From: Hydrurus foetidus
Taxonomy: Eukaryota
Length of the DNA stretch: 32,642 nt
Reading direction: 5' to 3'
NCBI GenBank assembly: GCA_900617105.1
Contig: UYFQ01000612.1
Coordinates: 1-32,642 of the forward strand
A model generated the notes under the pieces. It ran no database searches. It was given only the letters and a program-made list of their open reading frames with translations, and had not been told where the DNA came from. The translations under genes and the position numbers were made by a program. Of this stretch, positions 2,734-28,633 are shown piece after piece. Positions within the stretch are counted from its first letter, which is position 1; the number at the start of each line of letters is the position of its first letter.

Positions 2734-4794
2734 CTATGTTATCATGTTACCGTTATCATCGTCATCATCTTCCTGCAAGGCATCATAGTTCTGTGCGTAG
2801 TAATTTAATACGATTCTTTCTAGTGCATGTATATCATCCTCTTCGTTTTGTATTCCTGGAAAATCGATCACCGCTTCGTCATCATCTAAGTCCATAGTAC
2901 CCATAGGTACAACTGACATTGTTCCATTTTACTCCTCCTTCCTGTAGACAACGAATGTATCAGGTAAGTCTTCACTCTCTCTTTAAAGAGGTAGTGTGCC
3001 TGTTTTCATAAATGTCCTGTTAATGCAGTCCCTAAACTTTGCTTCTTTAAATGGTCCGTCGAATAGCACAATAATGTCTTTTATCCCACCTAACATAGTT
3101 GGCTTAGGGGGACTAAACTCGGGATTTTTTCGCTGGAGCAAAGGAAGATCATTGTCAGCTGCCCTTTTCAATTTGTATTCCTGGAAACTTTGGTACAGTA
3201 CGTTCGCCCTGTTCGTTCTGATGTGAGCCTTTAGGGGTCTGTTTACCACCAGGTCCAACACCTGCAATTCTCCTGTCATGTTCTTGGGCAGAAACACAAC
3301 ATCCACTCCGATTTCGTCTATCACTTCCATAATGCTCGTTGTCTCATGACTGCCGCAGTTGTCACACCACAGAAGCATCCTCTCCCCTACTAAAGGCTTG
3401 ATTATAACATCAAACCAGAGACACATACGGACCGTGTCGTTCCATGCCTTGCACTGGCTCGTGATCACATGTCCTGTTACTCTATGTAAAAGGTAATTGA
3501 CTTTGTGTGTGGCAGTAATATTATTGATAGTCAGTTCTCTACTCCACACCTCTAGAGACCAACCCTCACTGATCCTAAAACCGTTTTTCTTGTGCGTTTG
3601 ACGGATTACTGTCATATCAGTCTGGTCAGGGCGCTTCTCCGAACTGGCCGAATGTTTTACAATTAACATCAGAGGAGCGAAACGGCTTCTCCAGTAATTC
3701 TCATTTTTGAGTTCGAAATTCCTATGTTTGTGGCCCTCTGTTGATTTTTCGGACACCACATATGCGTTGGAGCTATACACCACGTAAAAGCAGTCTCGTC
3801 AAAGTTCCATGTGGTGCTGGGCGAATGTGCGTTTCTCACATAAAAATCTTGGCCTATTCCTAGAACTCGTGCTATTTCATCGTCACTAGGTAAGTTCTTG
3901 TCATCCCTTGTTATCTTTCGACGACTCAAACCTCCTAATTTCAAGAAATTGTGAATCCATTTGTGTGAGAATTTTATCGCTTGTATCTTTTCCTTGTCCA
4001 TCCAGTGATCAGATTGCTGAATTGCTCTTGCTGCAGTTTCTACTATTGGTGACATTTAATAGAATTCGAAGATCCTTTTCAGCAACCTATTCATTAATAC
4101 AACATTTAAATTACAAGTTTTTAATAGATCATATATTAATACATAATTGCATAAAACAAATAAGTAGAATGATGTTAAAATAAATTTACCTCATTTATTT
4201 TATTCTCTAAGATACACAACACTAGATTTCCCCATATCTCAGACACAAATTCACTGTTGATTTTTGGACCACTTTTTACCGTTAATTTGTCTTTCACTGA
4301 ATACCAACGTAATACATCCCGAGCTTTTATCGTTGAATAATAATTGATTTTGCCAAGCATTTTTTCTGTCGTTGACGCCGCAATTACATTGCAGTCGGCG
4401 TATTCTCTTTCTTCTGCCACGTCAGTAATAATTTTGAATAAATCTTATCGTCTTTTTCAAATATTATGTATTTCGATGGTATTTTAGACACCATTTCCAA
4501 CACTCTTTCATCATTTTGTATATCATTCAGAGCAAGATTATCATTATCATCATCTTCCGAGCTTACACTTTCCTCATCACCGTATTCAGCACTATCTATT
4601 AATTTCCGCTTTTTGGTGTCTTCTATTTTAATCGCAGAATTTAAATAGTATTGAATGTTATTCTCTCCAAAAATTTTCTTTACAGAATCCAACAAATTCA
4701 CTGTATTCTTTTTGATGGTTTTTTTCCCTAATTTAGATGGTGATTTCCGTGTAACGCGCTTTTTTTTCTCAACTTCCTGAGCTCGTGAACGAAG
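2734..4794 (-). pseudogene. pogo/Fot1-like transposase, 3' part (CENP-B-type HTH, DD35D catalytic domain, acidic tail)
   Basis: HTH motif KFSHKWIHNFLK..LSRRKIT; catalytic motifs WNFDETAF, LWCDNCGSH and ELQVLDLVVN (35 aa between D2 and D3). GT-AG intron at 4189-4087. Several frameshifts, plus two in-frame TAA stops before the Asp-rich tail that ends at 2734. Confidence 0.9.
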
Positions 4795-5000
4795 TGTAGT
4801 CCAGATGGAGGGAAGAGCGAAAGACGAGTAGGTGGTAGTTAGTTTACAACTAAGCTAGAAGCTAGGTAACTTCTACGAGTAGGCTGCAGCTAGCTAGCTA
4901 GTCGTGGTAGGGCTGTATATGTACTGTAGGCGGAAGGATCGGGTGGATCGTGACAAGGTCCGGTACGGCCCGTAGGCCCGGTATACCCGGTACGACCACA
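4795..5000 (-). repeat. 3' LTR
   Basis: 205/206 identical to 10728-10933 and adjacent to the PPT. Confidence 0.97.
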
Positions 5001-5022
5001 TTTCCCCCACTTATCTCTTTTT
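5001..5022 (-). promoter_or_regulatory. Polypurine tract
   Basis: The minus strand reads AAAAAAGAGATAAGTGGGGGAAA immediately before the 3' LTR. Confidence 0.9.
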
Positions 5023-5321
5023 TGAAGAAATCTAATCTATGACGCGACCACCACGTTTAAAAATATAATAACTAATAATAACTAAGAAAGGAAAAGAAAA
5101 TTTAACGAAAACTAAAATGAAAAATATAATAAAGAATATTTACAAAATGTAAACTGTGGTGGGTCGGTCGACGAGAAAAGTGGTGCCTAGTACGTAAGTA
5201 CATGTGCCCGAGGCCTCGATACGTAATTATGTCAGATTTTTACTGACTAAAACCATAAAACCTCCATAGAGGGAAAATTAGGAAAAATCTTCAAAAGATA
5301 ATACGTTCGAGATCAGTCTTC

Positions 5322-8300
5322 TTAGACTGATGCCTCAAGATTCTTGGGGATAAAATGTTTCATTTTATTGTCCCTCAAGTATTCATGGAGTGCTTCACAA
5401 AGCCGTAGGTTTTTCCACGGCTCCCATGAATTATGAGTGTCATCATAATTAAGCCATTTGACTTTGAATGACATTGTCGTAGGCTTCTTTTGTCACCTGA
5501 GTGACTAAGAACCTTTTCCACTACAAATTCCATGTAGTCACGACGAGCAGTGTCAGCAGGTACATCGACCTCTGAATCATAATTAAAAATTTTTAAATTT
5601 TTAATATGTACACTTCGTTCTTGTGTGTGACAAGGTTTGCGAGGATATACTCGGATCCTTTGTAGGAGATAACACGGTACGGGCCATGCCACGTAGTGTG
5701 TAACCGAGTAGGCGGTCGATCCGTGTAACGACATAAAACATATGTCCCTATAGGGAACACTGTCGCACACTTAGCTGATGCCGCGTGTTTAGCGTCTGCT
5801 GACACCAAAGCTTGAACAGCTGAATCAAGGACCTTGTCCTGAACGCTGATCAAGTCCTCAATGTATGTTGATCTAGAATGTGTATTCACACTTAAGTGTG
5901 GTGTTAAAATACCACGATTCAAGTCAAGCTTGTTTCCGAACAGTAAATGTGCGGGCGCAACTTTAGTGCGTCTATTAACTGAACTGTTAATGATGCGTTG
6001 CACAAATGGGATTGACTTAGCATATCCCTCTAGGGTCTGTTTATCAAAAACAAGACCTCTTAGGTGTCTATTTACCTCTTTGTTGACTCTCTCAACAATC
6101 GCATTTTCCTCTTTCGAGTATGCGAGGGTTAAATTATGTGGCGTACCACAAAGATCTAAAAATCTTTTATTAAATCGTTTGCGAAATGGGATCCTCGATC
6201 CGATCGTATCATGTTTGGCGAGCCGAAACGGCCAAAATGAGAGAGTAGGCAGTCGGCCGCTGATTTTGCGTCTGCATTTGCACACCAAAATAGTTCAGTC
6301 CAACGTGTGAACGTGTCGATAATGACAAGGATATAACCTTTGTCTGGGAATGGACCGATATAGTCAACATTCAGCGTATCGAAGATAGCATAATTCGACG
6401 TTGCAAAGTGAGACGCATTGATTTTAGGATCTTTTGCGCTCAACTTTTGACAACACGGACAGTTCTGTATGAACGTACGTACATGTTGTTTCATGTTTTT
6501 CCAAACTTGTTGTAAACTGAACAACCGAGTAAGGGTACGATCTACACCGTTGTGACCAACAAACGCATTGTGGCACATTTGAATGTATTCTAACTGATCG
6601 TCTGACGCTGGGTCGATAGCTGTCAAAGCTGACACAGTGACCGACGACGACGAAGTTGGAAGTAATTCCAATTCCGTTATTCGTAACGGTAATGCGATTT
6701 CTGTCAAGTTAGGACATAATCGCGACAATGCGTCGGCTAAGGCATTTGACGTGCCAGGTACGAAGACAACCGTAAAATGAAGTTCTTGCATAGCAATGAA
6801 CCATCTTGCTACCATTGAGGTAGGGTTTTGTTTCATATACGTGATATTCAAATGATCCGTATAGATTGTGAATGTACGATCTCTGATTAAATAATCGAGT
6901 TGTGTACAACAGTAGAATATAGCATACGCTTCTTTCTGTATAGTTGACCACCGTATTTGTGTTGGTGTCAATGATTTGCTTATAAAAGCTATTAGTTGCC
7001 AAATGGTATCAACCACTTGGAAAAGGACACCGCCGATTCCAAAATCAGACGCGTCTGTATATAATCGGATATCCAATTTATTGTCATCAATGAAGTACAT
7101 TAATGGACAACGAGATATCGCGATCTGTGTATCGTGAAAGCTGTTGGTACTCGTTTGAGTCCATACAACGGCCGAACGTTTCGGTGCAGAATGATCTATC
7201 ATATCTTGCATTGGTTTAACCAAAGTAGAATGCATAGGTACAAACTGTCGAAAATAGTTCGCTAATCCTAAGAATGATCTTAACAAAGTTAAGTTCTTAG
7301 GTATAGAAAAGTTTAACACTGTTTCTATTTTCTCTTTTGACATGGATAAACCATCTTTGTCAACCACTCTGCCAACGTATTCAATACGAGGTAAACCAAA
7401 GCGGCATTTTTTGGCTTTGAGTCTAAGACCCTTAAGTCTGAATCTTTCAAAGACTTTGTTCAAGTTCTTTAGAAACTCTGCTTCACCCTTGCCATATACT
7501 ATACAATCGTCGAGATACATCTCACAACAATGATAGATAAGGCCATAGAGGACCGCCGTTACCATCTGCTCTTGAAAGTAAGAGGGGGCACGACACGGAC
7601 CAAAGGGCAGTCTCGTAAACTGAAAAACCCCCGCAAAGCATATAAACGCTGTGAATATGCGGTGTGCGGGGTGTAACGGTGCTTGATGGTAACCCGCGGT
7701 TAAATCCATCACACCAAAAATATCCGGTTTTTTATTACCGATCCTCTCAAAAAGATGTTTGATATTCGGCAGGGGAAAAGAGGCGGGAGTCAGGCACTTA
7801 TTAAGTGGCCGGTAATCGATGCAGGTTCGAAATTTACCGGGTGACTTAGTTACGATTACAGGATGACTGTAATAAGCAGCATCTGACCGCTCTATAACCC
7901 CGACGCAAGCATCTCATCGAGATTCTCCTTAAGAGCAACCTCTTAGTCGATGACTGGGGACGTACCGGCGTACGGTTTTCGTCTTTTTCCCACAACTCAA
8001 GTGGGATGTTAATCTCAAAAGGTTTGAGTGACGCTGGTTTCTCAGCTAACTGATCACTAAAAATGTCTGAATATTCAGAACAGAGCTCTCGGAGCTTCCT
8101 CTGAAAGCTTTCATCTCCCTCAAAGGTAATCTCGTTGAGGAAATCCTCTGGCCCCTTGGGCAAGTCATCTTGACTAGGTTTCTCAGCTAAGAAGGGTGCG
8201 AACGTGTCTATCTTGCCATCGTCAATCTCGTCAACTGAGAGTGCGACACCACTGGGCCATAAAGGCTCAGTGACATAGTCGGGGGTATCAGAATCCCCAA

Positions 8301-9166
8301 AGGTATGTGTAAGGGTGGGAATCTGGTCGCCACCTAGGTGCGGTGTATCACCCGTACGTTTTGCGAGAATAGTAGTGACACTATTCAGTCGCTCACAACT
8401 TACATCACCACAGGAATTTTGGGTAGCTACTCCCTCCATATCCTTTTGGGTATCGTTACATGTCGACATTGAATGGACACAGGAGACGTTGCTCTTCGAA
8501 GAAGATTGACCAAGCAAAACGCTCTTCTTATATGGGTACTCTTGTACTCCATATGTAACCCTCTTTTTAGAGGTAGGTTTACCGCCTGGATATTTCAGCT
8601 TGTCGTAATGAGGCGTGATAGACTCGACTTCAGCTGTATCTGGTTCGGCCCCCAACGCTATCATACGATGCGTATACTTATGTTGATACATGGGATCAAG
8701 TCTCAACAAAGCTTCCTTCTTATCGAAGTCGCGTTTGCGCGCATCGCTTTTCTTCTTATTCTCCGCGCTTAGTTCTGGCGAGATGCCGAAAGCAAACGGA
8801 GTTAAGGACCAAAAATCGTATTTATTTACCGTATCACGGCTAAATAATATGTTGATATTCGTTTTCCGAATAGGTACATGTGGCTGCACTTCGACATGAT
8901 CGTCAGTCAGATTAAAGACATCATTATCGAAAGTGACAGCCACGCAGTCCTGGGCAAGGTTCTTACCTTGGTTTTGTCCCGGCTGAGTGTTGTCTCGGCT
9001 AAATAATATGTTGATATTCGTTTTCCGAATAGGTACATGTGGCTGCACTTCGACATGATCGTCAGTCAGATTAAAGACATCATTATCGAAAGTGACAGCC
9101 ACGCAGTCCTGGGCAAGGTTCTTACCTTGGTTTTGTCCCGGCTGAGTGTTGTCTCGGCTAAATAAT
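5322..9166 (-). pseudogene. pol: Gypsy pol polyprotein (degenerate protease end, RT, RNase H, integrase, chromodomain), frameshifted
   Basis: RT: FRTCIDYR, DLTAGYHQ, LPFG, YLDD. RNase H: YTDASDFG, KEAYAI, TDH, ADALSR. Integrase: H..H..CPCC, VDYIGP, RSDRG, IVERVN. Chromodomain: VEKVLSH..FKVKW..NSWEPWKNL. At least four frame changes (~7930, ~6160, ~5620, ~5480). Confidence 0.95.
8837..9166. repeat. Exact 159-bp tandem duplication (53 codons, in frame)
   Basis: Units start at 8837, 8996 and (partial) 9155; AVTFDNDVFNLTDDHVEVQPHVPIRKTNINILFSRD occurs twice in the ORF. Confidence 0.95.
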
Positions 9167-10717
9167 CTGTCGATATACCCTTATGGGCAGGCTGATGCTA
9201 TTGCATTCACCATCGAATGAAAAAGGATTGTTAAATCGCAAGTTTTACATTGATCGTCGCGACCGCTACACACCGTTATGGCCCTATGGGTAGGATAACA
9301 AAGTAGTATAACGTTAAGAATTTTTATCATGTAAAATGAAATAAAACCCTATATAAATTCGCTGTACCCCACACGGATTGATCAGCGGCGCTCTGATGGC
9401 TAACCGGTGTTGTGTGCAGTCAAAAGATACGATTGTACTTACGATCACTTCTTTTCAATCAATGCAATATTGCATTGCAATAATTTTACTCAGCATAAAG
9501 CTGTTCAAGAAACGTGATAGCGTGAACGAAAAGAGCGAATCATACTAACGATCTTTTGATTTATGTTGCAAAGCAACAGAACATTTGCAATGTAAGAAAT
9601 ATTACAATCGAAAAGTTTAGCTGAAAGCTGGAGGAACACTCCTTATTTTTCATTTTTTTTTTTTTTTTTTTAAAAGTGTTACAGTTTCAAAATTTTGTTA
9701 AGACTTGAAATCCGTTCTTAAATGTAACAAAATGTGTACCCACATATTGAAAACTAATAAAAAATGTACGACATTTTCAAATGTACGAAACGATGACTCA
9801 CCCCTACTGGGGCTCGAACCCCGAACTCAGGATGGTCAGTAATCCTTGGAGGATATTTTCTTTAATCGTCGATATCTCTCAACTGAGAACGATTCGAGAG
9901 ATTAGAAGCTTCAGATCATGTTTATATGGTTGTTAGGCATCTTTCTATAGGTTCTGACCTTTTCTGGGTCAAAACCTGATAAAAATCAGTCGAGTACGAC
10001 GATGTCGCGCTAAGTTCATAACTCAGCAGGATGATCTCGAATTCAACCCGAACTCGATGTAAACGATTCTATAGGATGCAAGAGTTCATTATCCGAAGGA
10101 ACAATGATGTCCGCATGCGACTTCTCTAAGTATCTTCTGTCAAAAGATTAGCAGAAATCGTTTATTCACTCGAGATATTTCTCCGAAGAAAAATGGCTGT
10201 ATCTCGGTGAAGAGGTTAGCCCTGCTCGAAATTTTTTTTCAAGAGCTTCGCCTCTCTTACTAACGGGTACTGTGCGTCAGTAACAACGAGGGAAGTGATT
10301 CTACCCAACTCTTGAACTGAAAAGTTCTATGGCGTAAGAGCCAAATTCTGAGTGGTAGAAAAAGTGGATACCTTTTAAGGTATATGCTGCTGCTTTTCAG
10401 CGACAAGAAGACGTCTCTTGACTAATCTTATGTCAGCGGTGATGAATCCGTGATTCAATCGACCGTCAGAGCAGATCTTTAATGAATCTCGGGAAGGATC
10501 TTTCGACTTCGACCGGAAACTTAAAGAATGGAAGAGCCCAAGCTTAGGGATTCCAAGAAAGCAGGTATGCTGACTTTCTCTAACTTAAACTAAAGTTCTC
10601 TGAGCTCAAAGCTGCAAGAGAAGTCGGCCGTGGCGGACAATAGATCGCTCAGAAGTCTTATCTAAAAGTTGAGGACAAGTAGATGGACTGAGAAGTAGTA
10701 GAAAAGAGGTTTGACGA

Positions 10718-10727
10718 ATAGCGCTAT
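10718..10727 (-). promoter_or_regulatory. Palindrome ATAGCGCTAT at the primer-binding-site position
   Basis: Directly abuts the 5' LTR, and there is no TGG-initiated tRNA PBS. Confidence 0.7.
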
Positions 10728-10933
10728 TGTAGTCCGGATGGAGGGAAGAGCGAAAGACGAGTAGGTGGTAGTTAGTTTACAACTAAGCTAGAAGCTAGGT
10801 AACTTCTACGAGTAGGCTGCAGCTAGCTAGCTAGTCGTGGTAGGGCTGTATATGTACTGTAGGCGGAAGGATCGGGTGGATCGTGACAAGGTCCGGTACG
10901 GCCCGTAGGCCCGGTATACCCGGTACGACCACA
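10728..10933 (-). repeat. 5' LTR
   Basis: 205/206 identical to 4795-5000. Confidence 0.97.
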
Positions 10934-11676
10934 GAAGTACAATCGGAAGGTGTAGATCGCAAAGAATTGAAGCAGGAGAAGAATGGGTGGAAGAAGGACA
11001 ATTATTTTTAAGAAGCAAATCATTCCTAATTGCAAGTATTCTACGCAGAAGATCGGTTTCGGATTCGTGCTTTGGAGGTTCCTCTTTCTGGTACCCGAGA
11101 AACTTAATTTCTATCATTCTTGTGGCACCTACGAGATCATAGAAATCTCGAAGGCCATTTGTATTGCTTCCCATCGTTACTGCTAACATTCCTCTGTTGC
11201 GAAACTGCCTTTGGAATATGTTCATTCCATGCTGTAGAGCATCGGAATCGATACGGAAATTTGCTGTCGCAGCGTAGGGTAAATTATTGAGTTCTTGGCT
11301 GATTTCTACAGCTGACCATTGTTTGTCGGTATTGTTTTTATTGACCTCATGCCTAGCTAGAAAAATTGCCACCATGAAGGCGCAGTAATCGACAGAAAGC
11401 AAATATTCTTTCACTTTGGCCTTCATAATGCCTGTTTTCAGTGTGCAGGGATATATTGTATGAGAGTTAGCGCCATCGTGCCGGAGATTGCTTCAACATA
11501 ATATTGACCGTATTGCCTATGAAGTTCAATGGCCAAATCGTCCAACTTTCACCTGGTCTCGTTGTTATCTGCTCGGGAGTTGCCCCACTCGATAAATTCG
11601 TCGACTTCTGTCTTCGTAATCAAATTCAGACCACAGCCTCTGTCAGCGTAAGAAGTAGCACAGATGAAAGCTGATA
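10934..11676 (-). pseudogene. 5' part of the ORF interrupted by the Gypsy element (N-terminal extension of the pogo-like transposase)
   Basis: Removing the LTR element and one GAAG joins the ORF starting at 11426 (..DLHLPIVL) in frame to RSRAQEVEKKKR..KKNTVNLLDSV of ORF 4701-4384. Confidence 0.8.
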
Positions 11677-11813
11677 CCAGTGCGGTGCACAATCGAAACC
11701 GGTGCACAATCGAAACCGAAAACAGCTGGTGTACAACATACTCCTTCTGCCAGTGTCCGTTTGCAATTCACAATTCCTCCTCATCGGTGACTGTTCTATC
11801 GACACTGAAAGTT

Positions 11814-12302
11814 ATGGAAGTTCAGGACGATCACGAGCTTCCTGGATTTTTTGTCGGAATTGATTTTAAGGTAGCCGTCCCAAATGTTGCGCAGAAACAG
11901 TGGATGGTGAATAGGATCATAAGCGGTGTTGAAAAAGCTGCGAGCATTGCACGGCGTTACAATTTTAGGAGGAAGACGTTGAACGTTCTTGTCAAACGGA
12001 GCCGACAGGGAATCCCAATCCATTTGGGGGCGGGAAGACCACGAGTGCTTGATGTTCTGAGCCACGAAAATATCGAGACAAATATTGGCGATCAGACCTG
12101 CGCATCCGTTGACGATCTAAGAGCCGAAATCAAGTCAGAGTTTGTTTCGACATTTGAACGGCGTTATCCAGCGCGATTTGCGGAGCTAGCGGATCAGCAG
12201 AATGAAGTAAAGATGGCCAGACGATCATTGCAACGGTACATTTCAAGACTTCACCCCGGCGTTTTCGCGGATGCCATTGGAGGACAGAATATCGCGCTAT
12301 GA
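11814..12302 (+). CDS. 162-aa HTH DNA-binding protein, paralog of the transposase N-terminus with no catalytic domain
   Basis: QKQWMV..ARRY..LV..GAGRPRVL aligns by eye with QKLWLV..TERY..LV..GAGHPDLL of the facing transposase. The first ATG inside the TIR is at 11814. Confidence 0.75.
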   Translation: MEVQDDHELPGFFVGIDFKVAVPNVAQKQWMVNRIISGVEKAASIARRYNFRRKTLNVLVKRSRQGIPIHLGAGRPRVLDVLSHENIETNIGDQTCASVDDLRAEIKSEFVSTFERRYPARFAELADQQNEVKMARRSLQRYISRLHPGVFADAIGGQNIAL

Positions 12303-12334
12303 GACTTAAATTACAAGGAGAAATCGTGGCTACA

Positions 12335-14124
12335 CTACGCAGTCCCTTCAACATCATGGTTTACGGCAGGCTCGACAGTAGCATTCTTTTTAGCTCTCTT
12401 TCTGGGGACTACACCGGCGGCAAGTCTAGCAGCGGCGGCTTCCTTTCTTTTTATCGTGTTCTCCTTCCTCACGTCGACGGCAGCAGCTTTGGCAAGGCGC
12501 TTGGTGTCCTCGCTGGCATTGACGGCTGGATTTGTGAGGAAAATGTATCTCCTACGATTGAGCACCAAGCTTTCGCGGTCTCCGTTGTAATGGCCACCTT
12601 GATCGAATCCTAGTATTTCGTAGTCTCGCTCTTTCAACTCTCCATTCGCCTTCATCAGAGCGCAAAGCTGGGGTAAAGCCCTCTTTACTTGATTCACTTC
12701 TTTTATTGTGAATTCTTCTTTGCATTGCCCGAGGATACGGTCTACGTCACAGCCCCCAGAAACTGGGTCATACTGCCCGGTAATCTTGAACGACTCCACG
12801 ATGATATCCTTTCTTAGCGTTGTCTGCAAAATGTATTGAACAACTTGTAGACCCTCGATGCATGACTTCACATGATGACATGGTAGCTTACCTCCAACAT
12901 TTCTTTCATGTACTGTAATCATAGCCCTCAATCTCTCCGACATAGTCTTCTCTAGTACTTCGGCAATAGATTTTATGCCACGCTTCTTGGTCTTTGAAGA
13001 AAGGAAGCACTTACCAGCATCACAGGGTTGAGTGATAGAAGTCGTTGAGGCTGGTGGCTTTCCAACTATGATGTTGTGCTCCACACACATGTCAGCCATC
13101 GCTGATGTCTGCAGAGGTTTGATTTGGGTGTCCTCCCCGTCCAGAGTGAAGTAGGATGGTTTCGAGTCTTCGATACCGTAACGAACTCTCAAGTCCATCA
13201 CGAATTTGATGTATATTGTAGCAAACCACCATCTGTAGAATTCCTCATTGACTGATCTAGTCTTGGCGAAGACTACGTAACCGTCTGCTCTAAGGTCGGT
13301 ACCGATACCAAGGCCAGGAACCAGATGTACATCGATTGCCCCCGCCACCATGTTGTCGTCCGCACAGATGTATATTGGAGGTGCAGTCGCACCCGTTGCA
13401 TTCATGCAGAGATAGAATTTGACGAAGTACGCTGTAAGAGAAGAACCCTTGACAGGTAGTACTTTCAGAGGCCCTCCTCTAGCCCTCTGCTCTTCCGGGT
13501 CATATATGACTTGTATCTTATCTGTCAGAGCGCCACCAGTCTGATATGATGTACCGTCTGCATTGATTGCGATATGAGCATCTGTCAAAGGCATCACTAA
13601 ATGATGAGCCACAGCGACAGAAGCAGCATTATATTTGTTGGCAGTAGCAATCGCTCTCGCATCTGTCGTCTGCTCCGCGTAACCCAGTTTCAGGCTCATT
13701 TTCTCGATGTTTCTTTTGACAGTCCACCGAGAAATCGGTGGAATTGAGCACTCAGCGATTCCTTTTTCTTTAGTGACTTTCGCAACGAGCTCGGCCTGAA
13801 GAATCTTGCTGAACTCAGCACGATTCATGTTGTGGATTCCAGCTGATACTTGGGCCTTCACTTTGTCGAGTTTAGCCGGCCCCAACAGATCTGGATGGCC
13901 AGCACCGTTTCGCATGGCCTTCTTGTGCTTGTATTTATAGACAAGTCCTTTGATGTAAGATTCACCGAGGCTGTATCTTTCAGTGAGAAATTTGTAGGAA
14001 ACGTCGTGGTGTAGGACCTCATGCACGAGCCAGAGCTTTTGAGATATCGACAACTCGTTGACGCTTAAGTTCGAAGCCGTTTAAGTTCAAACGGACAAGG
14101 TAATCTCTCTGGAGGACTCTCCAT
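12335..14124 (-). CDS. DD39D transposase (pogo-like DDxD) with N-terminal HTH
   Basis: 572-codon open frame with INADGT, FTLDGED and ITQPCDAG (39 aa between D2 and D3) and a basic NLS-like tail PRKRAKK. The likely ATG at 14124 is one base out of frame at CTTAAA-CG (~14081), either a real lesion or an assembly indel. Confidence 0.88.
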
Positions 14125-14841
14125 GTTTTCGTCTGGAGTTTAGTGCAGTAGTCACCGAGATATCGTTGAAATGAAGCATAGTTGATAGGGTTGTATTTAT
14201 TTCAAAAGTTCGAATTCGGTTTCGATTGTGCACCGGTTTCGATTGTGCACCGCACTGGGATACTCTGAACAAAAGACAATGATGCTCAGAGTTGGTGGGA
14301 AGGCAATATCGATCGAGATACCGACCATAGTATGTGAAGAGAAGAATAATGGCGATGAGATCGATAAGGTAGCATTTTCCTCAACCGGTTGGTACAACTA
14401 CGGAGTTGAGTCTACGAAAACTTATTGACTATTTTTTTGAAAAAAAAGAAGCCGAACACTCAAATGGACCTGTCTCCTGCAGTTTTAGATTTTTAGAATC
14501 TAAAACATTCATTTGTGAATGAAACTTTGTGAAATGGAAATTGATAGGTTGGTAGTAGTGAAGTTGCATGTTGCACTTTTGGAATTGCAGTATTTCATGA
14601 ATTCAGATTGTAATTCATGTAATTCATGTAGTAGTTGATGGCACCATGACGTGAACCTTGTGCTTGAGACGCTCTGTATCGTTTGTGAAAGATGATTCAA
14701 TTCTCTCAAATGAGGAATAGAAGTAGCAAAGAGGAATGTTTTGCAATTGTGAAGTTGACACTGATTGATGAACAATTTTGATGCCGATTGCTGCATGAAC
14801 TGATCGTGCGTCACCGTTGTGCTTTGATTATCTTAGATTCA

Positions 14842-14978: not shown

Positions 14979-17900
14979 ATGAATACAAGAAAACCATCGG
15001 AAAGGAAGAGAAAATTTGATGACATTTATGACTATGTCGATGGCGAAACTTTTGTTGAAAAGAAGTCATCGAATTGCAAAATGAAGGCTAAGATAACATT
15101 TGACGAATTGAAAGTTTTAGAAGTCTTTGACGATTCAACTGAATTAGTTGAAACACCTGAAAAATTGTTCAAAATGCGTTCTTTAGAGAAAACAAAGATG
15201 TTTATCTCTAAACTAAAAGACTTCGAGAGCTGTAATATTAAAGATAATAAAAAAATGAGTTCTAAAAATAAAACAACTCAATTGATTGTTAGTATAAAAG
15301 GCTTTGAGAGTTCTAAGGAGAAATATAATAATAAAATTACTCGAAATTTTTGCAATTGAGTGCCGTTCGTGATTGAAAGTTTCGCAGAATATAAATAATT
15401 TGATTGAATTAGTTAAGACGCCTGAAAAATTGTTCAAAATATCTTCTTTGGAGAAAACAAAAAAAATTGTCTCTGAACTAAAATGCATCGAGAGTTGTAC
15501 TGAAAATGCAAAAAAAACAAAGTCAAGTAAATGCATGTTAAGAATTATCAGAACGGATAGTATTATGAAAAAGAAATGTCCTGGAAAAGAGTGCATATGT
15601 CAACGTAAAAACAATTTGAAAAGTAATAAAATTTCCTCTAGCTATGTAAATTCTATTATCGAAAGACGGAAGAACGTAATATCAGAAATTAAAACTATTA
15701 GTAGTATTGAAGGTAATGATATAGTTGAGAAGTTGTCGAAATCCATGTATAGTGTTCCAACTTCATCCCAACTTAAAGGACACGATACTGATCCTGAAAT
15801 ATTAAAAGCAGTACTGCTGCTGTGGGAGAATTTGGGAAGAGGACAATTTGGAAAATTGAGTAATATACTAATAAATGATAAAAAGGGAAATAACATCGAA
15901 ATGTTTGATAAAAATATGAATGAAATAAAGAGAGAAATATCAAAAGAAAAATTAACAAAAGCAAAAATGGAAACAATCTTGACGAATTTTTTGGAGAAGA
16001 TGTGCAACAAAAAAAAATTATTGACGTGTGCTTTATGTGGTGAGAGATCATTCCATTTATTCTATAAAGAAGTTTCAGTTGAAGATGACTTAGCACTACT
16101 GAAGCTAAATAATAGTCAAATTGAGGAATACGAAAATTTAAATGAATACAAAAATATAGCATCTGTGGCAAATATACAGAGCATTTTATATTATTTACAT
16201 CCTGAATGCATAACGCATGAAAAGAATATTTATAAAACACATTTGTGTGGATGCTGTTATAGCGATATACGTAAAAACGTAATGCCTAAATTTAGTATTG
16301 CTAATGGACATGATTATGGTGACTTCAGAAGAATAAAGAATCTCCAACCATTAACAATAGTTGAGAAACATTTAATTAGTTGTAATAGAATGTATGGAAG
16401 CATTTCAAAACTAAAAAATGGAGAAAATAGACAACTAATCGGCAATATCATAACATTTGAACAGAATGGACCTGATAAATGTGCAGAACAATTCAATTTA
16501 CCTGACGTTGTAGGAATAACAGAAGTCCTGCAAGTTGCATTTCTTGGTAGTAAAGAAGAGTTTGAATCAAGACGTAAAGATGTTATAATGAGTTGTGGTC
16601 AACTTCAAGTCAGATCTACAAACATTTATAGCTGGTTAAGAATGTTGAAGAGATGTAATCCCAAATATTGGAATATCGAAATAAATGAAAGCAATCATTG
16701 TATAGACTTGATGAACAATATAACAAAGAATCTTGTAGATCAAATACAAATAATTGATAATAAAACATTAATTACAATTGACAGAGTAATCAGTAATGAC
16801 ACTTCTAAAGTTCGTGAATTGAATATTGATGAACATATCGCATGTGCAAATAATACTGATGAGAATGGTTTATATAATATACCTATTTCAAATACAATGT
16901 TATTTTCTGAAAGTTTACAAGTAAATGAAGAAAATTTAATTAATAAGACTTTACAAGGGGTTGCTAAAACAATATTTCCTAAACTGATAAAAGTAGCACG
17001 ATTAAGCAATGATCCAATAAACGAATATGAGAACAATAGTAAGTTGTACTTGGGACTTTTTCCGTACCTTTTCATATTAGGTAAATTTGGGAATGGTATT
17101 GAATTAAAGGGAACAATGCCTTCGAAGTACATATTGCATCTCCTACATCAAAGGTAATTAATTTTTAATAAGTACTGATAACTTAGTTGCAAAAGTTTGT
17201 ATTAGTTATTACTATTGTTTATAATACTAATAAAATTATTTTTATATTTTTTACAGAACTTGTGCATTTGCCCAAGAAACTAAATTAATTTTCACATTAT
17301 TCAATCAAAGGCAACGGCATAAAACATCTTCAATTGTTAGTGTAACAGCAAAAAATGATCCTGCACAACTAATAAAGTTAGGTCAGACATTAACATGTTC
17401 AAAATTTAAAGACAGGTTAGAAAAAAGTATAAAGAATCCCCATGGAAAAGAAGCTAAATATACATTAAAAATGATAAATTCTCTTTTAAAAGTAAATGGA
17501 GGAAAAATAATAGGTTCACCCGCTGAAAGGAAAGTAGCCATAGGTACAATAATATCAATGGTACAATTTTTTTGCTGCCCTAGTGTATTCTTTACATTTG
17601 CACCTGACGACATACATTCGGTACTTACATTGAGAATTTCATGTCCAACAAAAAATGGTAATAATGCATTTCCGGCTATTGATGATGGCTTTGAAAGTTT
17701 CCTACAAAATAAACATACTAATAAAGACTTATCAATTATCATGGACGATCAAATTGATATATCAGAATATAATTTAAATAAGTTATTAAGTATGAATCCA
17801 GTTGCGGCTGCTTATGTATTCAAAATAACACTTGAAACAATATTTGAAGTTTTATTTGGAATAGTTCCAGATTATTTATCTAAAATTACTATTCCTATTT

Positions 17901-20900
17901 CAAGTAGATGCCACGGAATTTTCGGTCAAACTAAAGCAGCCTATACTGTTACTGAGGTTCAGGGTCGCCTTAGTCTACATGGACATATGACTGTATGGAG
18001 TGTTTTATCTCCTACCATAATACAACAATGCATTCAATGTAAAAAACTAGTTAATTCAGTTAAGGAAGTTATTTTATCTCAGATATCCTCCAGCATACCT
18101 TTAGAATATCATATGAAGGCATTAAACCGGCAGGCAACTCCACCTGCACATCAATCTGCTAGTGATCCTCCAAGATCTTTTTTTGACTCACCTTTGCCAA
18201 TTACAAGTATTAATGAATTTAATGATCACGTATATAGCGTTGTGAACTCAACAGCAGTACATCAACATTCAGATACCTGTATTAAAGGTCCCTTAGGTCA
18301 TGTAGGGTGTAGATTGTCATATCCGTCCAATTGTACTCCTGGAAAAAGTATAGAAATCAATGAACTCAAAATTGTCAATACCAATAATAATAATAAAGTG
18401 GATAACAATAAAGTTATACGTCAGAATGTCATTGAAAAAATAACAATAATTCGGATGAATTAATGTATAAAATAGTACCAGAAAAAAACATCAAATTCAA
18501 TAATATTGAAAGTAATTTTATTATGCAATATAAACCATTAGGATTATTAGATAATAGATGCATAGTGATGGAAATTCAAAAAGAAATATTCTATGAGGAG
18601 AAAAAGAAAATTTTTGAAGATATATGTCAAAAAAAATAAACAATACAATCGTTTCGATACCTGTATCGCAAGACATTCATTATTCATATAGAGGTTTGCA
18701 TTTAAAAGAATTATCACTTTTTGAGTACTCATCAGTTATAGAAATTGTTAAAATTGAAAATAAAAAAAATTACAATACAGAGTCAACACTTCCTAAAAGA
18801 AAAAAAAATACAACATATGCCTTTCAAAAAATGCATCCATTACATGAAAGTTATTGTCAAAGAATAAGATCTAAATTGCTTATACCATTATTAGTTGGTG
18901 GATCTCCATTAAACTTTAATTCTATCGATGACAATAACTTTCATCATACTTATGATAATTGCTCAACTGTAGAAAAAAAATATTTGGATAGAGCAGCACT
19001 GTACTACCTGACTTTAACATCACCGTGGACATTACAAACTCATGAATCAAAAAGAAAAACATCTGAGCTAATTCCAGAAGCAGGGCATACATATAGTAAT
19101 TTTGTACAATATATGAAAAAACTGAAAGGTTATGACACCACGTCAAATTCTTATAAATCATCATTTTTAAACAGATGCTTATACAGCTATATAGTTGAAA
19201 CTTCAAGAAATATGAAAACAAAAGTTACAAAATATAGAGCACGATCAGCTGATATGTGGGAAGTCAATCAGAAAGGACCATCTAAGTACCCAAAAAATCA
19301 AAGTGTATGTCAAAGTATTAATTATTGGCGTCACAAACACAATATTGACAACACTTCTAATCTAAAAGCAACAAACAATGCAAACGAGGAACTTGAAATT
19401 AATGATACAGAAACACTGCAACTAATTAAGACTCTGCAAGATCATTGTTCAAATACTACTGATTTAGCGACAAAAAAATGTTGATTTAAATAATTACTTA
19501 AATAGCAGCCATAAAGCATTCTTATCAATAGCAATGGAATATGAGAAAAATGAACGAGAGTATCTTAATAATTTTGCATCAAACGAATCAGCAGAAAAAG
19601 TTTGGAATAGTATACGCGAAAAAGAATTTCAAGAAGCAATTGCTTATGATTCAAATGAAGACAATGAAGCTTCATTAAAAAGTAGTATGCATTATAACTT
19701 AAATTCAGATCAAAGTGAACTTAATTATATTAAATGCAATATTAATCCAACTAATGACCAAGCTAATGTATTAAACACATTAACTTATTGTGTAGAAAAA
19801 AATTATGATGAACATTTTTTAATTTTTATCCATGGAGGACCAGGAGTTGAAAAAACATGGACTATGAATGAATTTAAAAAAACGCTAATGAAAAATAATA
19901 AAAAATTCATATGCACAGCATACACTGGAGTTGCAGCTAGTTTACTAACTGGAGGCGAAACAATACATTCCTTGTTTCAATTTCACATAGGTGAAAAAAA
20001 TCCTGAAAAATGAATAAGGATTTGAATACTAATTCTTTACGTATTATGCATAATAAATTTAAAGATTGTAATTACATAATTATAGATGAAATTTCAATGG
20101 TTGGTTCATTGATGTTATACAAAATACATAATAGATTGCAAGAAATAACAGGAAATAACTTACCATTTGGAGGAAAAAATATGCTTGTCGTAGGTGATTT
20201 CTTTCAAATTGTTCCCGTTGGAGATTCTTGTCTCTATAAAGATATTATTAAATACGTTGTTTTAAATAATGATATAAGTAACAAATCAAATAAAAAACAA
20301 AATAAAAACATGGTGAATGAGTTTGCTATTATTGGTGCAAAATTATATACAAAATTTAAATTATTATCATTAAATGATCAAGTGAGAGCAGCAGAAGATG
20401 AACTTCAAATGGAATGCCTTCTTTTATTACGAAGTTTTAATGGAAACCAAGTTTCGAATAAACTATTACAGTCATTAATACGAAATAATTCTTTAAATAA
20501 AAAAGATTTTGAGGAATGTAATACAAAAAATGAAAATAATACATGGTTTTCAGCGCCTTTGGCAGTTACATCAAATTGTGAAAGAAATCATTTGATGTTT
20601 TTAAGAGCACAAATTTGGGCTAAATTGGTGGGTCAACCAATAATAACATGGAATTTACAATGCAGAGGCGCATTTATAAATTATTTAACTGAAAACAATT
20701 GTATTGAAGAAATATATCACAATCAAAGTGGTCTCATTGGTATATTTGTACAAGGTGCAATGTCATACATTACTGAAAATGTAAATCCAACAAAAGGTTT
20801 AGCTAATGGTACCGCAGTGTACATGCACTCACTAACATTTTCTGATGAAGACATGAAGACAGATTATTATAAACAATTTGTTAAATTATTGCAAGTTGCA

Positions 20901-21558
20901 AAACCTGGAGAACAAGTTATTATTAACAAAATTATTCCAACATTTATAAATGTTGAATTTATAATGCAAAAAGAACTAAAACCATTTTGGGGTGCAACTG
21001 AAACATTATGCACTAATAAAGTTATTATTCTTATTGGCTATAAATCAAGATCAGAAAAAGTCACAATAGATATAAATGTTAATGGACAAATTTATCATAA
21101 CATAACAATTAAAAAAGAGAAGGAACACAGAGTAGAATTATCTTTCATAATTACATTCCATAAATTACAAGGAAAAACATTACCAAAACTAATTATTCAA
21201 CTCAATGAAAGATCTTTTTTACCTCCTATAACATATAATGGACTTTTTGGTGGCTTTATCAAGAGTTAAATTCCGTTCAGATCTCCGTATTATGCCTATC
21301 AATTCTGGAAATGATATATTATATTTAAAGAAATTAGCACCTGATGAAAATTTACAAGTTTGGTTGGGAGGATACAATTGTGATGGTGATTGGTCAAAGG
21401 AAAAATGCCAAGAGTTTCATGATCATAAAAAACTAATTTCATCACAAAAAAAAATAAAACAAAAAAGAACTTATAAGAAGACAAAAAATTGTTTTTTATT
21501 AGATAATGTACTAAAAAAAATGGTGAAGAAAATAAATGCTATGAGGATGTTACTCTAA
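14979..21558 (+). pseudogene. Helitron Rep-helicase (Cys-rich/DUF6570-like N-terminus, HUH Rep, Pif1 SF1B helicase)
   Basis: N-terminus: CALCGE, CGCC..PKFSIANG, WLRMLKRCNPKY. Rep: FFTFAPDD and EVQGRLSLHGH. Pif1: GGPGVEKT, AYTGVAA..TIHSLF, IIDEISMV, FGG..GDFFQ, GLANGT, TFHKLQGKT, VALSRV. A GT-AG intron at 17154-17256 restores the frame (LLHQR|TCAFAQE). Several frameshifts. Confidence 0.93.
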
Positions 21559-21566
21559 TTACTCGA

Positions 21567-22649
21567 ATGAAAAGTAGTACAAATTTGACACCAGTTCTTG
21601 AAATTATAAATAATCTAAACAATTTTGACTCAAAAAATAACGAAATTTCTATAATACCAGATGCAGTTAAACACAATGAAACTTTACTGCATATTGACTT
21701 ATTAAATACATTAGAAGATTCAAGAAACCTAATAAAATATTCAATGCAAGAATATAATACACAATGGAGAAATAATTTTAATCTTCTAAGTAATACGACA
21801 TATTTTACCGGAAATAATCAATTAGAAAAAATTTGGCATATTGCCCCTGATGAAATACAACTGACTGAACAATATTTGGAACAAGCAACTCATATGATAA
21901 ATAATGACCAGCCAAATTCTTTTATGCCTGATTACAATAGTAGATTTACTCATTTTCCAAGTGATGCATTGAGTGTAAGAAATCATACTTGGTTAACAGG
22001 AACTATAATGGATGTGTTTCTATACTCTATGACTATAGATGTCACAAATGGTTCTATTAATGATGCTATTAATGTATTTAATACTTCGTTTTATGCTAGA
22101 CTTTTAAATACTTTCCATAATGATGCTTCACATCCAGAATGAAATACATACAACTACACAGCAGTGACTAATTACACTACTCATTTTACAAGAACAGACA
22201 TTTTAAAAACTTCTATCATACCTATTCATATACCAAATCATTGGTTGTTATGTATTATAGAACCTAGCACAAAAACATTCTTCATTATAGACAGCTTACG
22301 ACATCAGAACTTAGATATAGTGCAAAATATACGAATGTGGTATAATAGTGAATTAGAAAGATTAAATTATAACACAAGTTCTAATTCAGAATTTTACATT
22401 GATTGGAATCTAGTGACTTCAAATAATTTACCTTCACATGTTCCTCGTCAACAGGATTCTTCATCCTGCGGCGTCTTCGTCCTCATGTGTGCCTTCTATT
22501 GGTATAAATACAATAGATTACCGAATTGTAATTTAGATTGGAATTCAAATGATATTAATTCAAGTAGGCCAAATTTAAGACAGTTCATTTTATATTTCAT
22601 TATTAAAAGTGTTTATAATGAGTCTATAAGATCATTAGATTTAAGATGA
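21567..22649 (+). pseudogene. Ulp1/SENP-family (peptidase C48) cysteine protease domain of the Helitron
   Basis: WLTGTIMD, FNTSFY, IPIHIPNHW, IIDSL, PRQQDSSSCGVF (H-D-C triad plus oxyanion Q). One in-frame TGA at 22140-22142 separates two same-frame ORFs. Confidence 0.9.
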
Positions 22650-23607: not shown

Positions 23608-26102
23608 TGACAAGGAATAAAATATTAATCACACACTCTCTTCAAGTAAATATAAAAGTATAAATATCTATTTTGCGACACACCTAATAAAACATACAAA
23701 ACAAATAAAATAAGCAGTACGAATAATCTTTAAAAATCAGAGAAAAATTCATTCACATATAGTTCAGGTGCTCGAATTAATATTCACATTCTCTTGTACC
23801 ATTGAGATTCGGAACAGTTTAAATTTAAAACTATTGCTAGTAGTCATCACGATTATTGCAGTGTTACAATATTAGTTCTTATTAATGATTCACGTGACAA
23901 ATGGAAATCCATCAAATTTGTGATGATAGACTTCATAATTCAGAATCCATCTGAACTGTACAATTATGGAAGTGAATGACCAAAGAGCCTCATCTTCAAT
24001 TCGATATAATGAAAGAGCCACGCTCATACATTTACGCAAAAAAGCCAAACTCAATCGCTAAAGTAATTCTTCAATTTATGCTCAATGATATAGTACCTTG
24101 CAAAATTTCCCTGAGCTCTTACGCTCCCTCTCAAAGCAGATCAGTTATTGAAACTTTCAACATCGCATCGACATATATTTTACGCATGAAAAGGCTATCA
24201 AACTTCAAGACCATGTCGAGCAGACCAGAGAAATGATTCTTTTTAGGCCTTTAAGAGCAATATCAAACGAGAGAAAGCAACATTTAGTATCAGAACTACG
24301 TCAGTAGCAAATGCAAAACAACCATTTCCGTTGCCTAATATTTACCAACGCTATGGAGAATCCCTCCAAGACAACGCTTTACACATGCCCATGGAGGTCA
24401 GTGGAAACTTCAACAGAAGGAAAGACTGCAAAATTGTTCAACTGCTACAGGTAAATTAGTGCAATTCCAGATTCAGTCACTGTTCTGTAACGATGCTCAA
24501 TCAGTCAAAGCGAAATAATGTGTGGCTTCCGCGAGTTCAAAAATTATACGGTATCAGAAAAAGATCATGGATTTGATTCCAACATTTGATTTTTGAACTT
24601 TTTTGGTATACAAAATACAATTTATCCGGATTCTAGAATTAGGCTCACGGTTCTTTTTCTTTATAATATACTATACAATCTCCCATACGACGGAGACAAA
24701 AACAAAATTTCCTGTCCCACCAAAGTAGCCAATTTTATTCTGTAATTTAGCCTAAAGGCGAACACGCCAAGTTATTCATATCCAAACACGTTTTTAAACA
24801 AAAAAAAAGACCTAGAACTACACACAATAAAAATAAATATCAAATAATAATATTATAGTAGCCATTCAAACTGGATTCATCAAAAATTAAATTCATTTTG
24901 TATCCATAAAATACAATCATCATCAAAAATTTACAATGCAATTTGCCATTTTCAAAAAATAATAACAATTAATTACAACTCCTTAATTTTATAATAAATA
25001 AGGTCATATATAAATTCACAATACAATTCCCACACGTTTGTCATCCTACAAATGTTGTTCATCAGTCAGCAGACTATTAGTTTTACTTTTATTGTTAAAA
25101 TTATAGCTCACATCTCACATAATACAATTGAAACACATTCATAAACTATTCAGCACAACCGTATAAAACACCAACCCCTAGCCAACCGGTTGAGTCTGTG
25201 TTAAGGCCGGTCCTTACGGTGTCGGATTTCAGGGAAAGTTAGAATTCTTTTCGATTTCGACATTTCGGAAATTCCGCCTATTTTACGACAATCTCCGCGT
25301 CGGAAATCGAAAAAGTCAGAATTGGATTTCAAAAACTGAAATCCGATTCTAACTTCTTGGTCCATAACACCTTTTCAGTCTTTCACCCACAACTATTTTC
25401 AATGACCGAATTATTGACTTCTGAATAGCACATGTTGTAGATCATGTATTGATTAGTGAGCTGGCCGAAGGTAATTGAATAAAAAATATTATTGATGATG
25501 ATAGGGCACTAAACGTCAGTATTTTATATTCTTCCTGTTAACGGATGTGAAAACCGTGAAAATGTACCCAAAGTTTGGAAGTGTACGGCACCCAACTGTC
25601 ATCCAGTATGTTCGTCTCTGCGGACAATTCTAGCTGATACCAGAGCTCCACCATTTCTCTGGCGGTGGAGCTTCTGAGTAGCTTGGCCTTCTTCAGAAGC
25701 CCAACTTTACCAGGTTCGACGCTCAAATGTTGTTCTAGACTACAACTGAATTTTGTTTTTGCAGCGACTCATGTTGACGATTTCGAAAACCTTGCTGACC
25801 CTCTTGCCACTCGTTTTATGTCCCGAGAATCAGGAAAAAGGACGATTACAACTCAGGTAACATGGAACTATCGGCAATCCCCCCATAGGTGGTGAGATTA
25901 ACTTCCTGCGAACATCAAAGTGCCATATTTTTTCTCTAAGAATTAGATGACTTTTTCTCGTGCTGGACTCTAGGAAATGTGTTTGATTCCCTGTACCTTT
26001 GGTTTTCATGTTGCATGATGACTTCCTCTCAATGGCTATCAATCAGATTAGCTCAAATATGTCCGTAACTTGAATTGTCATCAGGAATTTCGGCGAGAAG
26101 TT

Positions 26103-26410
26103 ATGGCTCCTCTGCCGTCCTCAGCGATCTGTGTTAAGCACAAACATCACTGATCGCTGGGGACCTAAATTCTAGCGAAGCTGCTAAGGATTGTCTGTTT
26201 GTCAGTGAAACAGCTTAGGATTGTCTGTTTGTCAGTGAAACAGCCAAGGATTTCGTAGAGGAGGCATTTATCATCTTAAGATAAATGGCTCCTCTGCCGT
26301 CCTCAGCAATCTGTGTTAAACGCAAGGACTATAGATTGCTGGGGACGTAAAGCACAGAGAAACAGCCCTGGCTGAACCTACAGTGAAACAGCCTTGGATT
26401 TTGTTGAGGA
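26103..26410. repeat. ~182-bp imperfect direct repeat with an internal 30-bp tandem duplication
   Basis: ATGGCTCCTCTGCCGTCCTCAGC at 26103 and 26285; AGGATTGTCTGTTTGTCAGTGAAACAGC at 26187 and 26217. Confidence 0.85.
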
Positions 26411-27148
26411 AGCATTTCTTCAATTATTTTATTGATTGGTCTTCTAATGTATGTTTCTTTGTGGTAAATTTCTTTCTGCTTCATTTTTTTTAATTCATAA
26501 GACAATTTTATTTCTCTACTTGAGGAGCGATTTCCTTTCACTAATTTTGTTTTTTTTACTGAAGTGAGAAGTACTGAGGTATCCTTCGGATTAGTTAGAA
26601 GAGTCGCATCAAGCACACCAACCGTGGCAGATACTGAGATATCCAGCTGTTGAAGGGGTACAGTGGTAGTTCTTTCACTAACATTACTGCCATTCTTTTG
26701 TAATGATCTCTCTTTCTTCAGCTAAGAAATTTGGGATGTTATTCCTAATTACTTCTATTAATTCGTTACATACAGTGGTATCATCACCCAAAACTTTCAT
26801 TTTGTAAGCATTGTATTGCCTATGTAAATAATGGAAGAAGTCGCTTTTCTTTCTGGACTGAAGAAAGAGAACAGAATAAGTTCTTGAGACGTATACTCGT
26901 AGGCAATACAGCGAAAGCCCGAGCTGTAAATGTACCAAATTTGGGATTGTGAAGGCCTGTTTTAAACGATTACTTTTGCCATTGCGACGATCATAGCCAT
27001 ACACTATACTCCTCAAATCATGCATCATTGTCTCTGCATCGCGAAAGTCGCAGTAAGTGATGGGACAACTCATCGCAATGGCGATAGCCATCGCATTTGC
27101 TATCTCCTCCTCCAATTTTGGTGGAATAAACTGTAATTCGTTAACCAT
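26329..27148 (-). pseudogene. Unknown ORF carried by the Harbinger element, frameshifted
   Basis: The 154-aa ATG ORF joins the 26329-26616 frame (NGSNVSERTTTVPLQQLDISVSATVGVLDAT) through a shift at an A-run near 26697. No family recognised. Confidence 0.45.
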
Positions 27149-28385
27149 TGTTGGTACAAAGAATGCCAGCTAGCGGAGCGAAGAAAATAAGCTTTTATTA
27201 TAGTTTAAGAAAAGATTCGACTAGGCTCCGCTAGCTGAGATTACTTCTGTATGTCATGGCTTGCAATAAACATGATTTCGAGGACGTTGAGAAAGAAATC
27301 CGATATGATTTTTGAAGGAATCAAATGACTTGTAGACAAAACAGCTCCACTAAAGCTAACCAGCTCGACAAGAAGTTCGCTTGATGTACAGCTCAAAAGA
27401 GAGCGTGCGATGAAATCTCGATGTATCTAGCGAACTGCGATAGCATTGGATTGAAGACTACTGGAAGACTTCAGTGGGAAAAGTGAAGTGACCGTTTCCG
27501 TATTTTGTGACAGGCAGAAATTTATCGAGGTGTTATGGACCAAGAACTTTCCCTGAAATCCGACACCGTAAGGACCGGCCTAAACTTTATTTCTTATTTT
27601 CCGTACTTGAAAACACAACAATAGGCACTGGACGGTATCGAGGTTCCTACCGTACCGTAAACGTAATATGTCGTGAGAATGGTTTTCGTGAGAATTATTT
27701 GAAATACGAATTAATTACTGAAAATTTGTGGTGAGAGAGAACTACAGGAATTAATTAACTGAGAAAAGAAGTACTGAGAATAATATTGGGCGTCGAACCA
27801 CCTAAACTCAAACTCGGCGGTTTTTGACAAGTTCGAACCAACCTCTACGGTAGCAAAAATGATGGTCTCATGCCGTAACCTCTAGCTAACGTTGTTTTTT
27901 AACGAGCGTTTACTAAAGTGCGTACATTTTGCCTGTACTTTGCGTCCGGATAAGGTGCAAAAGTTCAAATTTAGATGGTTTTCAATGCTACGGTGTATGT
28001 GATTGGTTGAAGAATCTACAGCCTATTACCAGCGACGTGATAGCTATCAACAGTAGAATAAGGAATTTCTTAACATCACTGTCCATCCGGGTGCTGTCGC
28101 TTCAAGATTTTGTTCGTTATCTCAGCAATTGGAATCAGGTAGAAGGAGCCTCTATCAGTGCCGCCATGCGATTGGAAGTAAATTTTGGACGCTTGATATG
28201 CCATTTTAGTCATGACGTCGCGTACTCATGACCTGGCTACATTTTTATCCTTCTTGGCTGTCAGATATCGAGAGACTATTTAGATTATGAGAGAATTTAT
28301 GAGTATGTTTCGAAGAACAGATTAATTATGCCCCCATTAAGCGATTACAAGACCTCCAATATTTTGATTAAGTTGTTCTTGATTG

Positions 28386-28602: not shown

Positions 28603-28633
28603 TATTTCATAATTTCGAAATAATATTTTTGAT

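Follow-up and report, generated by a model that had tools for sequence, protein, structure and literature searches.

Whether eukaryotic transposons evolve and retain their own repressors is an old question. To our knowledge, the repressors known so far are by-products of the transposase gene, so that selection on the regulator is inseparable from selection on the enzyme; the KP and 66-kDa proteins of the P element are such repressors. Elsewhere the transposase is accompanied by a non-catalytic partner protein, as with TnpA of CACTA elements and mudrB of MuDR, the convergent genes of MuDR being driven from both ends. IS630-Tc1-mariner (ITm) elements duplicate TA on insertion, with TAA and TAAA as known exceptions, and L31 elements carry a second ORF. 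In IS1, InsA attaches to both ends and thereby represses the promoter as well as transposition (PMC12903888). OrfA of the IS3 family is regulatory (PMC1636345), and Harbinger depends on its ORF1, a protein that binds both the transposase and the ends (PMC2836001). The pogo elements have D-D spacings of 29-59 and ends of 40-60 bp, some Fot-like members having a 4-bp TAAA duplication (PMC7386202, Gao et al. 2020), and PlantMar/DD39D, sister to mariner and found in plants and a few oomycetes, has the typical Tc1/mariner structure (PMC7325037). Ciliate TBE and Tec are ITm elements with multiple ORFs (PMC7325037), Fanzor-bearing mariners are ITm elements with an extra ORF, and Sola2 has an AT-rich 4-bp duplication, AWWT (both PMC3627910).

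Here we describe a two-gene element of 2,582 bp (11677-14258) with convergent genes, lying in a 32,642-nt stretch of DNA (the window; Table 1). The window is eukaryotic and transposon-rich. Besides the two-gene element it holds a gypsy-like element (4795-10933) whose 206-bp direct repeats are identical and whose pol region is split (6156-7709, minus), a broken, AT-rich Helitron-like region running across several frames (14979-22649; DUF6570, PIF1 helicase), a pogo element with a frameshifted DDE_1 transposase (2983-4055) and a ribose-5-phosphate isomerase gene whose start resembles a signal peptide. Also present are a non-coding 1.5-kb element with perfect 28-bp inverted repeats (27653-29143) and a 2.4-kb stretch (25200-27585) with 41-bp inverted repeats and a 154-aa ORF (26684-27148, minus) that has no Pfam match at threshold. 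Perfect, TA-flanked 29-bp inverted repeats 26 kb apart (1640-1668 and 27609-27637) enclose the two-gene element, the gypsy element and the Helitron-like region. Another pair of inverted repeats (774-805 and 5220-5251) crosses this one, suggesting nesting plus rearrangement. Nineteen of the 23 listed sequencing runs hold at least half of the sampled words of near-identical DNA, and the runs with such DNA are mostly freshwater, sediment, biofilm and air metagenomes. The host would be a protist of fresh water, probably a stramenopile.

Table 1. Features of the two-gene element, in window coordinates
Feature	Position	Strand	Remarks
Left target-site duplication, 4 bp GATA	11673..11676	+	Sequence; empty-site contig in run X1
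Left terminal inverted repeat, 44 bp, starts CCAG	11677..11720	+	
17-bp direct repeats inside left end	11684-11700 and 11701-11717		Predicted binding sites
ORF2, 162 aa, without catalytic domain	11814..12302	+	
Predicted parts of ORF2			HTH1 25-64, GRP linker 74-76, HTH2 81-146 (residues)
Spacer between convergent stop codons, 32 nt	12303..12334	.	
Transposase gene, 595 aa in intact sister copies (P0003)	12335..14124	-	
Catalytic D189, D328, D368	about 13556-13558, 13139-13141, 13019-13021	-	
Lesion private to window copy, net 2 extra bases at codon 13	14079..14087	-	Two bases fewer in the contigs of runs X1, X3 and X8
Right terminal inverted repeat, 44 bp	14215..14258	-	
Right target-site duplication, 4 bp GATA	14259..14262	+	Sequence; empty-site contig in run X1

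The outline drawn in the original prediction held on measurement. The terminal inverted repeats are perfect (44 of 44 bases complementary), each with an internal direct repeat matching at 17 of 17 positions; the stops, put at about 30 bp apart, are 32 nt apart; and the 162-aa ORF2 is intact, a frame of its size occurring in 1 of 5000 mononucleotide shuffles of the region. A contig of sequencing run X1 joins 11672 to 14259, skipping 2586 bases, that is the 2582 of the element plus 4, which makes the target duplication 4 bp (GATA) and not TA. Since a 78-base contig from the same run crosses the filled right junction, the insertion is polymorphic; the element is recently inserted. In run X1 its contig has a depth of 273, not above the 408 of the flank, which hints weakly at a low copy number. 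The start codons lie 137 nt (ORF2) and 134 nt (transposase) inside identical ends, from which we infer that both genes are driven by mirror-image end promoters.

Similar ends recur among relatives. A CCAG start and an internal repeat of 17-19 bp (12 to 17 positions matching) were found in all eight families with a scorable end, and locus L010 has perfect 41-bp ends. The relative L001 has a 4-bp duplication, TATT, whereas left and right flanks do not match in L002 (GATT/TATC) or L006 (TATT/GATA), perhaps because metagenome contigs there join different insertions. Overall, the 4-bp flanks match in two of the four elements compared (relatives with both flanks usable, plus the window), and a central AT is present in all. 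An apparent TGCA duplication at L008 was dropped: the contig begins with a left flank of 15 bases that repeats the right flank in reverse complement, which looks like a misassembly.

The transposase of the window copy is not intact, a point overlooked in the original prediction: a 2-base frameshift leads to a stop after 19 codons. P0003 (595 aa, 99% identical) is in frame, as are a further six full-length members of the cluster; because these sister copies simply read through, neither a programmed frameshift nor a small intron was retained as an explanation of the 5' break. The lesion resembles a short stretch replaced by a templated copy of sequence lying a few bases downstream, and its form suggests a real repair scar rather than a sequencing slip. 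Among 7998 candidates we found 61 transposase relatives, of which 39 near-full-length sequences were aligned. D189 and D368 are present in all 39 and D328 in 37; the predicted DD39D spacing is likewise kept in 37, with 40 and 41 residues once each. G75 of the linker is invariant in this alignment, the window's family having GHP where GRP is usual. One transposase subgroup (P0050, P0052, P0056; L001 825-2846) has a Cys-rich, zinc-finger-like C-terminal tail.

Nothing in the transposase reached the Pfam threshold, DDE_1, HTH_Tnp_Tc5 and CENP-B_N included; at E ≤ 0.1, weak matches were found to DDE_1 in 3 of 39 relatives (best 0.016) and to HTH_28 in 9 of 39. The transposase profile matched neither the window's own DDE_1 element (E 0.42) nor sequences of solved structures, and a search for relatives in viral contigs and prokaryote genomes found none. 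Language-model features placed the transposase nearest DDE_1 (pogo) clusters (0.95), and in a Foldseek search with its model (pLDDT 87) all 7 matches at E ≤ 0.001 were Mos1 (best 1.9e-6). Judged by this modelled fold, the element is a cut-and-paste transposon of the IS630-Tc1-mariner fold, its transposase being ITm by fold and pogo-like by motifs, a description by fold and features rather than a placement on a tree of reference transposases.

ORF2 is related to the N-terminal part of this enzyme. BLASTP aligned the two at 23% identity over 56 aa (E 2e-4), and their local score was reached by none of 3000 shuffles. Profile-profile comparison gave 98.4% (E 4e-15) with 10 ORF2s and 99.8% (E 9e-28) with 136, over 145 columns and transposase residues 7-153. 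Profile similarity of this strength bears out the kinship first proposed and identifies ORF2 as a true paralog of residues 7-153. The similarity spans the whole predicted DNA-binding region and ends just before the G-x-AE-x-TT linker. The ORF2 model (pLDDT 79, pTM 0.55) has helices at 25-36, 42-49, 53-64, 81-92, 99-117 and 136-146, those predicted for the transposase lying at 26-37, 43-50, 54-65, 82-94, 101-120 and 132-141; both are thus predicted to have the same pattern, two helix-turn-helix units joined by a GRP-type linker. The ORF2 protein is basic, K28, G74, R75 and P76 are common to ORF2 and transposase, and G74-R75-P76 is present in 97-98% of 136 ORF2 relatives. Other residues, D80 (97%), S83, T113, R116 (91%) and Y142 (91%), are conserved in ORF2s and not in transposases. 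Identity to the cognate transposase domain is only 15-24%, and ORF2 is not significantly closer to its own transposase than to others (p 0.12, six pairs), which counts against assuming a shared site specificity.

Fold searches with ORF2 gave nothing significant, either with Foldseek (best E 0.28; CENP-B, Pax6, Tc3 and SETMAR in the top 8) or with VIA (Z ≤ 5.3), and its profile matched sequences of solved structures weakly (best E 0.44; SETMAR domain 0.45). A DUF763 match (E 6e-5, far under the cut-off) was rejected as spurious, as was the ThyX label on P0089, an ORF2 copy 99% identical to the window's whose annotation is almost certainly wrong.

A metagenome scan by catalytic-domain patterns alone yielded 11 loci, their best segments 25-49% identical. 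The proposed check of whether ORF2 is always present in relatives gave a mixed outcome: 8 of the 11 loci have a convergent ORF matched by the transposase N-terminal profile (E 2.5e-24 to 1.2e-10), whereas the complete elements L002 and L010 have no ORF2, even when a deep profile is applied and stops are ignored. L005 is cut short about 200 bases past the transposase stop, and ORF2 is absent from 2 of 10 informative loci. With L008 and L009 counted as one family, the eight ORF2 loci make seven families; in six of them ORF2 is open and alignable, at 17-26% identity to the window's, and L008/L009 has frameshifts in both genes. The stop-to-stop distance, measured at six loci, ranges from an overlap to 72 nt. 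L002 and L010 retain two-repeat ends despite the missing ORF2; they are not sisters on the catalytic-domain tree, where L010 is a long branch of unsure placement. The transposase is a 625-codon open frame in L010 and frameshifted in L002. ORF2 is a family-wide trait, though not a universal one.

A profile of 13 ORF2s matched 1084 proteins at E ≤ 0.001 among 1.84 billion representatives; these are protein sequences without genomic context, and their membership in elements is not implied. Among the best 150 of the 1084, 136 are distinct, 120-210 aa long and end a median 16 residues after the last helix motif, none has a transposase segment following the binding domain, and 143 score higher with the ORF2 profile than with the transposase profile. 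Proteins with two to six tandem helix-turn-helix modules and no catalytic domain were also seen (P0142, P0150, P0159, P0172, P0181 with six stretches, P0196, P0226), possibly host-recruited DNA-binding proteins. One metatranscriptome run holds a 140-base piece on the ORF2 start and a 195-base piece on the transposase, unstranded, possibly of DNA origin and for that reason not counted as evidence; none of the 14 matches of the protein search was a transcriptome-derived ORF2. A relative, sister to the ORF2-less L002, occurs as a complete transcript in a protist transcriptome (P0040, MMETSP).

Between L003 and L006, ORF2 has pS 0.76 (saturated) and pN 0.35 over 134 codons, and the transposase pS 0.74-0.80 and pN 0.30; by simple counting in this one pair, ORF2 appears to be under purifying selection like the transposase's. 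These values and the open frames of distant relatives argue for the original proposal that ORF2 is maintained and against neutral evolution. In three ORF2/transposase pairs, linked solely by the equal size of their source contigs, ORF2 identity to the window (67, 55 and 69%) tracks that of the transposase binding domain (69, 61 and 69%), the rest of the transposase being 82-89% identical. Near-identical copies differ in ORF2 by 1 replacement and 2 silent changes and L008/L009 by 1 replacement, too few to judge. We built a tree from 44 transposase N-termini and 13 ORF2s; every ORF2 fell on one side of a branch (86/76) that was present in 84% of 200 bootstrap trees. On this tree ORF2 likely arose by one old inverted duplication.

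Set against the observed architecture, mobility, paralogy and conservation of the element, the reading that we prefer, and judge evenly poised, is that ORF2 is a catalytically empty paralog that binds the 17-bp repeats of both ends and damps transcription and transposase assembly. Repressor and cofactor, the two roles first proposed, still make the apt pair of alternatives. One old inverted duplication would have created a second gene for the transposase's predicted two-part DNA-binding domain. The ORF2 protein would bind the 17-bp repeats in both ends and, once bound, throttle transcription from the end promoters and assembly of transposase on the ends. Protein from any copy could occupy the ends of all copies, and the negative feedback would grow with copy number; IS1 InsA is comparable, except that ORF2 has a gene to itself. 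Paralogy across the entire DNA-binding region with the same helix pattern in both models, the near-invariant G74-R75-P76 of a basic protein, the L003/L006 selection values, the hint of low copy number and the InsA precedent all fit such damping. The loci without ORF2 indicate that it is not essential in every lineage, and the perfect ends and open transposase of L010 suggest that an element can do without it; however, the L002 transposase is frameshifted and L010 may be helped in trans. The near-invariant D80, R116 and Y142 would fit a new function as well as a stripped competitor, and the single origin has branch support of just 86/76, with the alternative of grouping the window's ORF2s with their own transposases not rejected (p-AU 0.084).

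A repressor that acts in trans is selected only weakly where hosts outbreed, whereas selection for a helper that the element needs recurs with every spread of that element. This favours another reading, which we hold only tentatively: ORF2 may be a positive subunit that binds the inner 17-bp repeat or the transposase. By analogy with PIF/Harbinger ORF1, it might help to build the paired-end complex or to recruit the enzyme to the ends. A helper role would suit the lasting purifying selection on ORF2 and its distribution over the transposase tree, the conserved residues peculiar to its second half, the two sites at each end in all eight scorable families, the GHP linker of the window family's transposase and the precedent of Harbinger ORF1, which is required. 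Against it, the transposase retains its own full DNA-binding region, unlike Harbinger's, and L002 and L010 keep two-repeat ends without ORF2. It is possible, if rather doubtful, that the element is the founding member of an undescribed, widespread protist ITm lineage (CCAG ends, 4-bp duplication, D-D39-D) whose transposition complex joins two paralogs, one the full transposase and the other a duplicated DNA-binding subunit that evolves separately and has in some copies been multiplied into tandem-repeat host DNA-binding proteins.

Spm TnpA and the VANC proteins are factors of a transcriptional or anti-silencing kind. We consider it improbable that ORF2 likewise keeps the end promoters active or binds non-transposase sites: its deep divergence from the cognate transposase domain and the mirror-image promoter positions would agree with this, but it has no activation-like or extra domain, as the tight length and short tail of its best matches illustrate. 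Very unlikely, and largely refuted, is a neutral relic (of an inverted duplication or a head-to-head composite) or a role only as antisense transcript, since the close-packed stops, at which the 3' ends of transcripts would overlap, the frameshifted or missing ORF2s and the 1 replacement among 3 changes in near-identical copies are set against frames open in six of seven families at 17-26% identity, saturated pS with pN 0.35, and 136 distinct relatives of tight length with invariant residues.

The second gene stands apart from that of the transposase and has persisted in widely diverged elements, and nature supplies elements both with and without it, so that the question of transposon-encoded repressors can be tested directly. 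An intact element this small, with two genes and a 4-bp duplication, may also serve as a switchable transposon tool, and the tandem forms of the domain may illustrate how transposon parts turn into host DNA-binding proteins.

In the literature we found no transposon with a separate paralog of its own DNA-binding domain, although Repbase, the papers on Sola, Zator and L31 elements, and supplementary tables of pogo elements could hold the family; it is an apparently undescribed variation on ITm transposon architecture. The element has the IS630-Tc1-mariner fold and DDD/E triad (Mos1 matches; D189, D328, D368) and a predicted two-part N-terminal helix-turn-helix with a GRP-type linker, but duplicates GATA here and TATT in L001 rather than TA. 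It resembles pogo in its D-D-D triad, its N-x-D, LDG and QP-x-D motifs, ends within the 40-60 bp range, a spacing of 39 inside DD29-59D and transposase features nearest DDE_1 clusters; it differs in its GATA and TATT duplications and in lacking DDE_1, HTH_Tnp_Tc5 and CENP-B_N matches at threshold, and no pogo clade in the accessible part of PMC7386202 is DD39D-fixed or has a DNA-binding-only paralog gene. With PlantMar it shares the 39 residues between the last two aspartates, but PlantMar has a single gene and a TA duplication; the 4-bp duplication, pogo-like motifs and two genes led us to reject membership of the plant family, DD39D denoting spacing only. Set beside Sola2 by description, the duplication agrees in length, but GATA and TATT are not AWWT, and transposase fold and features point to ITm.

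TBE, Tec, Fanzor-bearing mariners and L31 likewise combine an ITm transposase with extra conserved ORFs; those elements, however, have DD34E or DD37E, and their extra ORFs encode zinc-finger, recombinase, nuclease or unknown proteins. PIF/Harbinger, CACTA and MuDR are also two-gene terminal-repeat elements with a non-catalytic partner, but Harbinger ORF1, TnpA and mudrB are unrelated to their transposases. Moreover, the Harbinger transposase is without an obvious binding domain whereas that of the window's family keeps one, and in place of a Myb-like ORF1 and a 3-bp duplication we found no Myb family match in 10 ORF2s and a 4-bp duplication. Like IS1 InsA, IS3 OrfA and the P-element KP and 66-kDa proteins, ORF2 is an element-made protein equal to the DNA-binding part of the transposase. 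Those proteins, however, are products of the transposase gene itself, arising through frameshifting, splicing or deletion, and share its sequence, whereas ORF2 is a separate, independently evolved gene on the opposite strand.
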